Shown here piece after piece: positions 33,217 to 33,468 of a stretch of 64,000 nucleotides of DNA; the first letter of the stretch is position 1; the number at the start of each line of letters is the position of its first letter. This DNA comes from a virus. The stretch is from positions 18,518 to 82,517 of the IMG/VR virus record IMGVR_UViG_3300009078_000075. One strand, written 5' to 3'. The notes under the pieces are model-generated. The model searched no databases and had not been told where the DNA came from. It saw nothing but the letters and a program-made list of their open reading frames with translations. The translations under genes were made by a program, and so were the position numbers.

Positions 33217-33242
33217 AGAGGATAATACATAATATATTTGAA

Positions 33243-33468
33243 GGTGATGGCGCCAAAATCACCGAGAGGAGGTCGGCAGGGGTAATGAGGTTATATTTTC
33301 CCGAGTCCCTTCTCTTACTTGTTTTTTGATGGGATGCACGGTTGTTATTTCGTTGATTCGATCGGGATGTCTTATTAAAGGCCAGTGGCTATTTTGCCAT
33401 GAAGTGTTTGATATAATAAAGGGCCTTATCGTTCCGTTCATTTCAAGGGATATTTCGTGCATCCCATT
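33243..33468 (+). ncRNA. Candidate structured ncRNA(s)
   Basis: GC-richer intergenic stretch after a class B box; two hairpins followed by a ~140-nt rod closed by a perfect 12-bp stem. Confidence 0.55.

Follow-up and report, generated by a model that had tools for sequence, protein, structure and literature searches.

Among described systems, the nearest architecture to the element reported here is the pR′-tR′ leader of lambdoid phages. In phage lambda, this leader yields the so-called 6S RNA, a transcript of ∼194 nt that is unrelated to bacterial 6S RNA and whose terminator is overridden by Q and NusA (bioRxiv 10.1101/2024.10.31.621285). The lambda RNA is bound by Hfq and is a terminated leader RNA with a role in trans (bioRxiv 10.1101/2024.10.31.621285). 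StxS, a 74-nt RNA of Shiga-toxin phages, is made in the manner of lambda 6S RNA and is reported to act in trans (PMC7547250). The unrelated bacterial 6S RNA (SsrS) resembles our element in size class and in being largely a double-stranded, bulged rod. In phage T7, intercistronic RNase III sites take the form of long hairpins of irregular shape that contain an internal loop and are situated just upstream of a ribosome-binding site (RBS). Intrinsic terminators are typically compact, spanning a few tens of nucleotides.

The locus considered here lies in an 82.5-kb IMG/VR virus record from freshwater sediment that is ∼90% complete. We analyzed bases 18518 to 82517 of this record, a 64-kb stretch (GC content, ∼32%) that is referred to below as the window; coordinates are those of the window unless given as genome positions. 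The virus is a tailed phage, with recognizable terminase, portal, major head protein, and tape measure. A gap of ∼250 to 279 nt separates an RNA ligase gene from a unit consisting of a 27-amino-acid (27-aa) open reading frame (ORF) and a PagL-like gene, and all surrounding genes lie on the plus strand. Two DNA sequencing runs from freshwater sediment, probably the source of the record, contain this stretch with zero differences; no RNA run is listed as containing it. The features of the locus are listed below, with hairpins 1 and 2 abbreviated hp1 and hp2.

32111, plus strand: class A box, 45 nt, followed by a 149-aa ORF and then the RNA ligase gene
32683 to 33216, plus strand: upstream gene for a 177-aa RNA ligase (PF09414; Pfam E value, 1.2e-12)
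33224 to 33234, plus strand: class B box AATACATAATA, a −10-type promoter-like motif (7 exact copies versus 0.24 expected)
33243 to 33263, plus strand: hp1, with a 6-bp stem (GGUGAU/AUCACC) and a 9-nt loop
33264 to 33316, plus strand: hp2, a branched, terminator-like hairpin (ΔG, −19.6 kcal/mol) with arms beginning GAGAGGAGG and ending CCCTTCTC, followed by ACTTGTTTTTT
33317 to 33327, plus strand: U-rich tail ACUUGUUUUUU after hp2, with a U6 run that begins 6 nt past the stem
33327 to 33469, plus strand: irregular rod of 143 nt, with 48 pairs, 9 of them G·U
33409 to 33417, plus strand: extended −10-like sequence TGATATAAT in the one-sided bulge of the rod
33470 to 33481, plus strand: U-rich tail UUUAUUAUUUUU abutting the rod (10/12 T, reached by 0.24% of the 12-mers in the window)
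33484 to 33579, plus strand: RBS (AAAGGAA) and 27-aa hydrophobic ORF, with its ATG at 33496
33583 to 34017, plus strand: downstream gene for a PagL-like lipid A deacylase with a signal peptide (PF09411; E value, 7.8e-07)

The PagL-like gene has no Shine-Dalgarno sequence of its own and starts 3 nt past the stop codon of the 27-aa ORF (MDLDQAIQILVILAMINLCLMFICYIF; ATG at 33496, end at 33579; codon score, +0.10), so the two are probably translationally coupled. A small hydrophobic ORF behind a long structured leader is reminiscent of type I toxin loci. Against this reading, the RBS is unpaired in the centroid fold, there is no convincing minus-strand promoter, and coupling to PagL argues for an ordinary leader cistron.

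Two ORFs cross the rod, one of 55 aa on the plus strand (33326 to 33493) and one of 83 aa on the minus strand (33259 to 33510). Under a codon model trained on 43 long genes of the phage, in which real genes average +0.25, these ORFs scored −0.165 and −0.153, respectively; the other negative scorers were antisense ORFs. The preliminary description of this DNA had stated that the region lacks an RBS-supported ORF. Indeed, no RBS precedes either frame, and neither contains a Pfam domain. The 55-aa ORF had zero matches among 1.84 billion representatives, and the 83-aa ORF had zero matches in a 5.8-billion cluster set. No conserved peptide among these ORFs explains the region, and the gap is noncoding. 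ARAGORN likewise reported no tRNA or tmRNA.

The rod is unusually stable. Its predicted folding energy was −55.1 kcal/mol, compared with −33.8 ± 3.6 kcal/mol for dinucleotide shuffles (z = −5.85), and none of the 200 shuffles was as stable. In a composition-corrected structure scan of the whole 64-kb window (150-nt steps, both strands), the rod ranked second, below only an ori-like palindrome at 15.1 kb. The fold of the whole gap (284 nt) gave a z score of −3.68, while hp1 and hp2 alone (z = −1.7 to −1.8) were not significant versus shuffles. The earlier claim that the region is highly structured thus held when z scores were computed, and the pairings listed with it were recovered. These include the GGTGAT/ATCACC hairpin (33244 to 33249 with 33258 to 33263) and the TCGG/CCGA hairpin with its U-rich tail. 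The rod is closed, as described, by arms at 33329 to 33340 and 33456 to 33467, which form perfect 12-bp inverted repeats at its termini. The closing stem (ATGGGATGCACG/CGTGCATCCCAT) even extends to 15 bp (33327 to 33341 with 33455 to 33469), with a pair probability of 0.98. Helices of 6, 4, 2, 7, 7, 2, and 5 bp follow inward, and the inner helices include TTGA/TCAA, CGGGATG/CGTTCCG, and an apical hairpin, GTGGC/GCCAT. The remaining listed pairing, AAGGCC/GGCCTT, is present in the sequence as an alternative to the minimum-free-energy (MFE) pairing UAUUAAA/UUUGAUA (pair probability, only 0.57). In both the MFE and centroid folds, unpaired regions within the rod consist only of small internal loops and a one-sided bulge of 16 nt.

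Several properties of the two larger structures are those of terminators. Both contain stable stem-loops, in that hp2 is comparable in energy with a canonical terminator at 34810 to 34855 (−21.6 kcal/mol) and the rod has a near-certain closing stem. A U tract with 10/12 U follows the rod directly. The tract after hp2 is weaker, with the U6 run displaced from the stem and 8/12 T, a level reached by 4.3% of windows. The most stable hairpin of the region thus abuts one of its most U-rich stretches, as intrinsic terminators and the 3′ ends of small RNAs characteristically do. Neither structure is compact, as the rod measures 143 nt and hp2 measures 53 nt and is branched.

The fold also differs between strands. 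On the plus strand, the rod was predicted to fold at −54.3 kcal/mol with 48 pairs and 9 G·U pairs, versus −36.3 kcal/mol with 39 pairs and 1 G·U pair on the minus strand. Because the minus-strand fold is still significant (z = −4.5), this energy gap stems partly from the G+T richness of the plus strand. The asymmetry agrees with the context, as the genes and U-rich tails lie on the plus strand. By comparison, the ori-like DNA palindrome at 15.1 kb shows no such asymmetry, with −30.5 versus −29.9 kcal/mol on its two strands, 0 and 1 G·U pairs, and z scores of −6.5 and −8.9. We conclude that the region is a noncoding, RNA-type structured element on the plus (gene) strand and that it is statistically exceptional. 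It had also been described as GC-richer than its surroundings; this is true of the downstream side (0.38 to 0.42 in the gap versus 0.24 to 0.30) but not of the upstream ligase gene, which is equally GC-rich.

The class B box in front of the element, pointed out in the preliminary description, proved to be a real recurrent motif. All 7 exact copies of AATACATAATA lie on the plus strand, within the interval from 15 to 38 kb. Five units have no inserted hairpin (3 exact copies and 2 with one mismatch); in these, the box begins 0 to 21 nt past the preceding stop codon and ends 13 to 30 nt before a start codon. From this placement we infer a −10-only promoter. At the locus under study, 9 nt separate the end of the box from hp1, which would place this hairpin at the 5′ end of the transcript. 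Class A boxes have the form AACCGAT-N17-CCGATAT followed by ATATAATAGAGAGGG, lie ∼40 nt before start codons, and occur at window positions 9451, 27560, 32111, 39267, and 39555 and at genome positions 5429 to 5629 (minus strand). The phage encodes a 218-aa sigma-70-family (ECF-like) factor that may read one of the two box classes.

Between the rod and the ATG at 33496, we found neither a class A nor a class B box, and a consensus scan gave no plus-strand site there. The rod itself contains TGATATAAT, a perfect extended −10 located 79 nt before the start of the small ORF. It may serve the PagL unit as an internal promoter of the host type, which we take as a lead only, since the motif occurs at chance level (7 found versus 9 expected in 128 kb). 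A transcript starting there would have no significant structure (z = +0.2).

Similar builds recur elsewhere in the phage. A box B at 34780 is followed by the clean terminator at 34810 to 34855 (−21.6 to −24.4 kcal/mol, U6), an RBS, and an ATG at 34887. Two further units, behind a box B at 15326 and a variant at 15422, each consist of a hairpin of ∼65 nt and a U-rich run. Finally, 4.4 kb before the window (genome positions 13870 to 14071, minus strand), a multibranched structure with a 17-bp perfect AT-rich stem (z = −3.2) precedes ACAAUUUUUUAUAAAGGAG, which holds a U6 run and an RBS, and then the start of a RecA-like gene. Large closed structures that end in a U run shortly before an RBS are thus a recurring feature of this genome.

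Other repeats were noted in the window. A gene-free stretch of ∼900 nt (14622 to 15520) with three direct repeats of CTAACAATAAG (14668 to 14700) is probably the replication origin. Beside these iterons lies the ori-like palindrome (∼15105 to 15175), which is near perfect over 68 nt, strand-symmetric, and the most structured site of the window. Long 15-nt tandem-repeat arrays with pentapeptide-repeat-like periodicity lie inside ORFs at 12397 to 12741 and 63811 to 63990. Two 85-nt stretches (28967 to 29051 and 31227 to 31311) are 75% identical, indicating a paralogue, 2.3 kb upstream, of the 168-aa ORF at 31130.

Searches for relatives of the element returned only the element itself. Rfam gave no match at gathering scores over the window, nor at an E value of ≤10 over 33000 to 33700, with the 6S family included. 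The gap had no homologue in INPHARED (50,697 phage records; blastn) or among 162 loci around ligase and capsid homologues from IMG/VR and metagenomes (blastn and nhmmer). A single-sequence covariance model (R1) run over 594 kb of those loci and the phage's own genome found only the query, and the rod is single copy in the phage. The two-arm, terminal-repeat pattern had 0 matches in IMG/VR viral contigs and GTDB genomes. A 20-mer from the apical hairpin (IMG/VR and GTDB) and a 22-mer from hp2 (IMG/VR only) had 0 matches apart from one of 21 nt in an acidobacterial Solibacteraceae metagenome-assembled genome, which we regard as chance because its flanks share no similarity.

The neighboring proteins gave little help as anchors. 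Homologues of the ligase number in the hundreds in IMG/VR and metagenomes, with at most 73% identity, and none of the 162 fetched loci shared the neighboring genes. PagL and the products of the two nearest small genes (o34021 and o32176) had no relatives when used in the same way; the PagL-like protein, carried in identical form on 6 contigs, had none besides itself in 5.8 billion clusters. The nearest relative of the capsid protein is 45% identical and not syntenic. On these searches, the element is an orphan with no detectable homologue in INPHARED, in ∼160 ligase-linked loci, or in GTDB genomes.

Set against the systems introduced above, the locus has most in common with the lambda 6S RNA and StxS leaders. 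Like those leaders, it would be a short, structured, noncoding transcript running from a promoter to a terminator, with genes beyond that need read-through. Counted from the predicted start at 33241, terminator-like ends would fall after ∼80 and ∼240 nt (near 33320 and 33478). The likeness may extend to an RNA by-product that also works in trans, as reported for StxS (PMC7547250). The element differs in having no similarity to these leaders by sequence or model, a putative promoter, and terminator-like structures in tandem, hp2 and the 143-nt rod. Its downstream genes are accessory (the small ORF and PagL) rather than a late or lysis operon, and it has no Q-family gene: the 82.5-kb record (∼90% complete) contains neither of the antiterminator families PF06530 and PF03589.

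The remaining systems are more distant. Like T7-type RNase III hairpins, the rod is intercistronic, long, and irregular, has an internal loop, and lies ahead of an RBS, but the element is about twice as long and is followed by a strong U tract. Tandem terminators at phage moron or cassette boundaries are similar in lying directly behind an accessory gene of deviating GC content, and relatives of the ligase gene commonly have a terminator behind them. Our element differs from these in its upstream promoter-like box and in a second "terminator" far larger and more elaborate than termination needs. The preliminary description had also found the bulged rod loosely reminiscent of 6S-type or decoy RNAs. 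This resemblance did not survive comparison with bacterial 6S RNA: the element has no Rfam 6S match even at an E value of ≤10, it is a single orphan, and it has a one-sided bulge in place of the two-sided central bubble that mimics an open promoter. Lacking such a bubble, the fold shares with 6S RNA no more than the general shape of a bulged rod. Readings as a retron, a Y RNA, or an omega RNA were discarded because the partner protein genes (reverse transcriptase, PF00078; Ro/TROVE, PF05731; TnpB, PF07282) are absent from the phage record.

We favor, at roughly even confidence, a role for the element as cis-acting transcriptional punctuation, either as a leader that lies close to its promoter and is terminated twice or as an intercistronic element, serving the 27-aa ORF/PagL unit. 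Transcription would arrive from the class A promoter at 32111 or start at the class B box (33224 to 33234; predicted start, ∼33241). The 5′ hairpin, hp1, would form first, followed by hp2 and its U run as a terminator-like structure and lastly by the 143-nt rod, with its 15-bp closing stem and the U-rich tract immediately after. Many or most polymerases would stop at one of the two sites, yielding noncoding RNAs of ∼80 and ∼240 nt with ends guarded by hairpins. The small ORF and PagL, having no phage-type box of their own, would then be expressed only through read-through or, alternatively, from the weak host-type promoter within the rod.

Favoring this arrangement are the exceptional stability of the rod (z = −5.85, second in the window), its excess of G·U pairs on the gene strand (9 versus 1), and its tail of 10/12 U. 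The overrepresented, strand-specific box B also points this way, as does the recurrence of the order box B, hairpin with U run, and RBS at 34780 to 34886 and 15326 to 15500. So do the similarly built element ahead of the RecA-like gene, the lack of class A and class B boxes between the rod and the ATG at 33496, and the noncoding nature of the region. Moreover, homologous ligase genes in other phages often have a canonical terminator hairpin directly after them, which fits hp2 as the terminator of the ligase unit. Against it, a 143-nt hairpin is far above the typical length of an intrinsic terminator, the U6 run that starts 6 nt past the hp2 stem is suboptimal, and hp1 and hp2 together have a z score of only about −1.8. 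A promoter placed right before terminators also needs antitermination or leakiness, and no Q-type antiterminator was found.

The preliminary description had proposed a novel phage noncoding RNA (ncRNA). What stands is a noncoding, structured, plus-strand element belonging to no described family. A cis-acting leader or terminator module fits at least as well as a free-standing ncRNA, given the terminator-like tails, the lack of a phage-type box before the next RBS, and a rod that ends 26 nt before the start codon at 33496. A free-standing, trans-acting ncRNA would comprise the rod alone or hp1, hp2, and the rod (∼240 nt) transcribed from box B, and it would be stable and serve as a protein decoy or a base-pairing RNA with targets in the host or the phage. 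The promoter-like box, 5′ hairpin, and terminator-like 3′ end with a U tail would suit such an RNA, as would its exceptional stability and the presence of further box-B-driven hairpin units in the phage. However, it shows no conservation, no family match, no partner protein gene, and no two-sided bubble of the 6S type; moreover, the RNA is mostly paired, leaving little seed sequence, and the element sits in the sole transcription path to the next genes. Because terminated lambdoid leaders can act in trans as by-products (StxS, PMC7547250; lambda 6S RNA with Hfq, bioRxiv 10.1101/2024.10.31.621285), we keep this idea as a tentative, though unlikely, alternative. The narrower proposal that the rod, with or without hp1 and hp2, is a stable stand-alone RNA acting in trans as one of a small box-B-driven set, possibly as a protein decoy or ribonucleoprotein partner of the probably dead RNA ligase encoded next to it on the upstream side, is decidedly unlikely.

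We consider it quite unlikely that the element is an RNase III-type site of intercistronic processing or stability, at which the closing duplex would be cut to separate the ligase and PagL messages and leave protective hairpins, as in T7 early mRNA. The predicted fold does have the form of such a site, with about two turns of near-continuous double-stranded RNA containing an internal loop (a quasi-continuous stack of 15 bp, a 4-by-2 internal loop, and 6 + 4 bp), and it lies between cistrons, with an RBS shortly downstream; before the RecA-like gene, the same place is taken by the element whose closing stem is a perfect 17 bp. Processing has no need of such extreme U-richness after the stem, however, and is indistinguishable from termination in silico. 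The phage also encodes no RNase III; genes for this enzyme and for a tyrosine integrase are both absent from its record. An inverted repeat that operates at the DNA level, with no RNA function, could be what remains of a small mobile element, a protein-binding site, or a flank carried along with an acquired ligase cassette. Its perfect 12-bp terminal repeats, the significant minus-strand fold (z = −4.5), a GC content equal to that of the probably acquired ligase gene, and a neighborhood conserved in no ligase-bearing relative are compatible with this. It is nevertheless very unlikely, as the repeat is single copy in the phage, its terminal pattern is missing from IMG/VR and GTDB genomes, target-site duplications are not apparent, the 9:1 G·U asymmetry favors a plus-strand RNA, and the inner helices are imperfect in an RNA-like manner. 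A miniature inverted-repeat transposable element (MITE) in particular was rejected: the 12-bp terminal repeats are present, but in a single copy and with 0 matches to the arm pattern in IMG/VR and GTDB. Least probable by far is a small protein-coding gene, whether the 55-aa plus-strand ORF or the 83-aa minus-strand ORF. Both frames are open through the rod and the former ends 3 nt ahead of the next start codon, but a palindrome is expected to leave open frames on both strands. Furthermore, the codon scores are in the range of spurious ORFs, and RBSs and database matches are lacking.

The most interesting side observation concerns the adjacent RNA ligase, which has lost its catalytic lysine. 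Motif I reads EMIDGTN (codon at 32743 to 32745) in the phage protein, compared with EK[IL]DGT in all ∼160 homologues; the adenylylated lysine is thus replaced by methionine, through a one-base change from AAR to ATG. The ORF is otherwise intact and ∼72% identical to its relatives, and both DNA assemblies agree on the methionine. Judged by this substitution, the ligase is probably catalytically dead, and a dead ligase could bind RNA without sealing it.

As one orphan sequence, the element has the value of a lead rather than a result. It is best read as a fresh example of a terminated leader or intercistronic structured element and not as a 6S-like decoy. If this is true, stable, structured RNAs would stand at several sites of the phage between a short promoter box and the gene that follows. 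Such an arrangement would offer a compact means to time or throttle accessory genes, such as that for the lipid A deacylase, and may give rise to phage small RNAs in a lineage that has no cultured relative.
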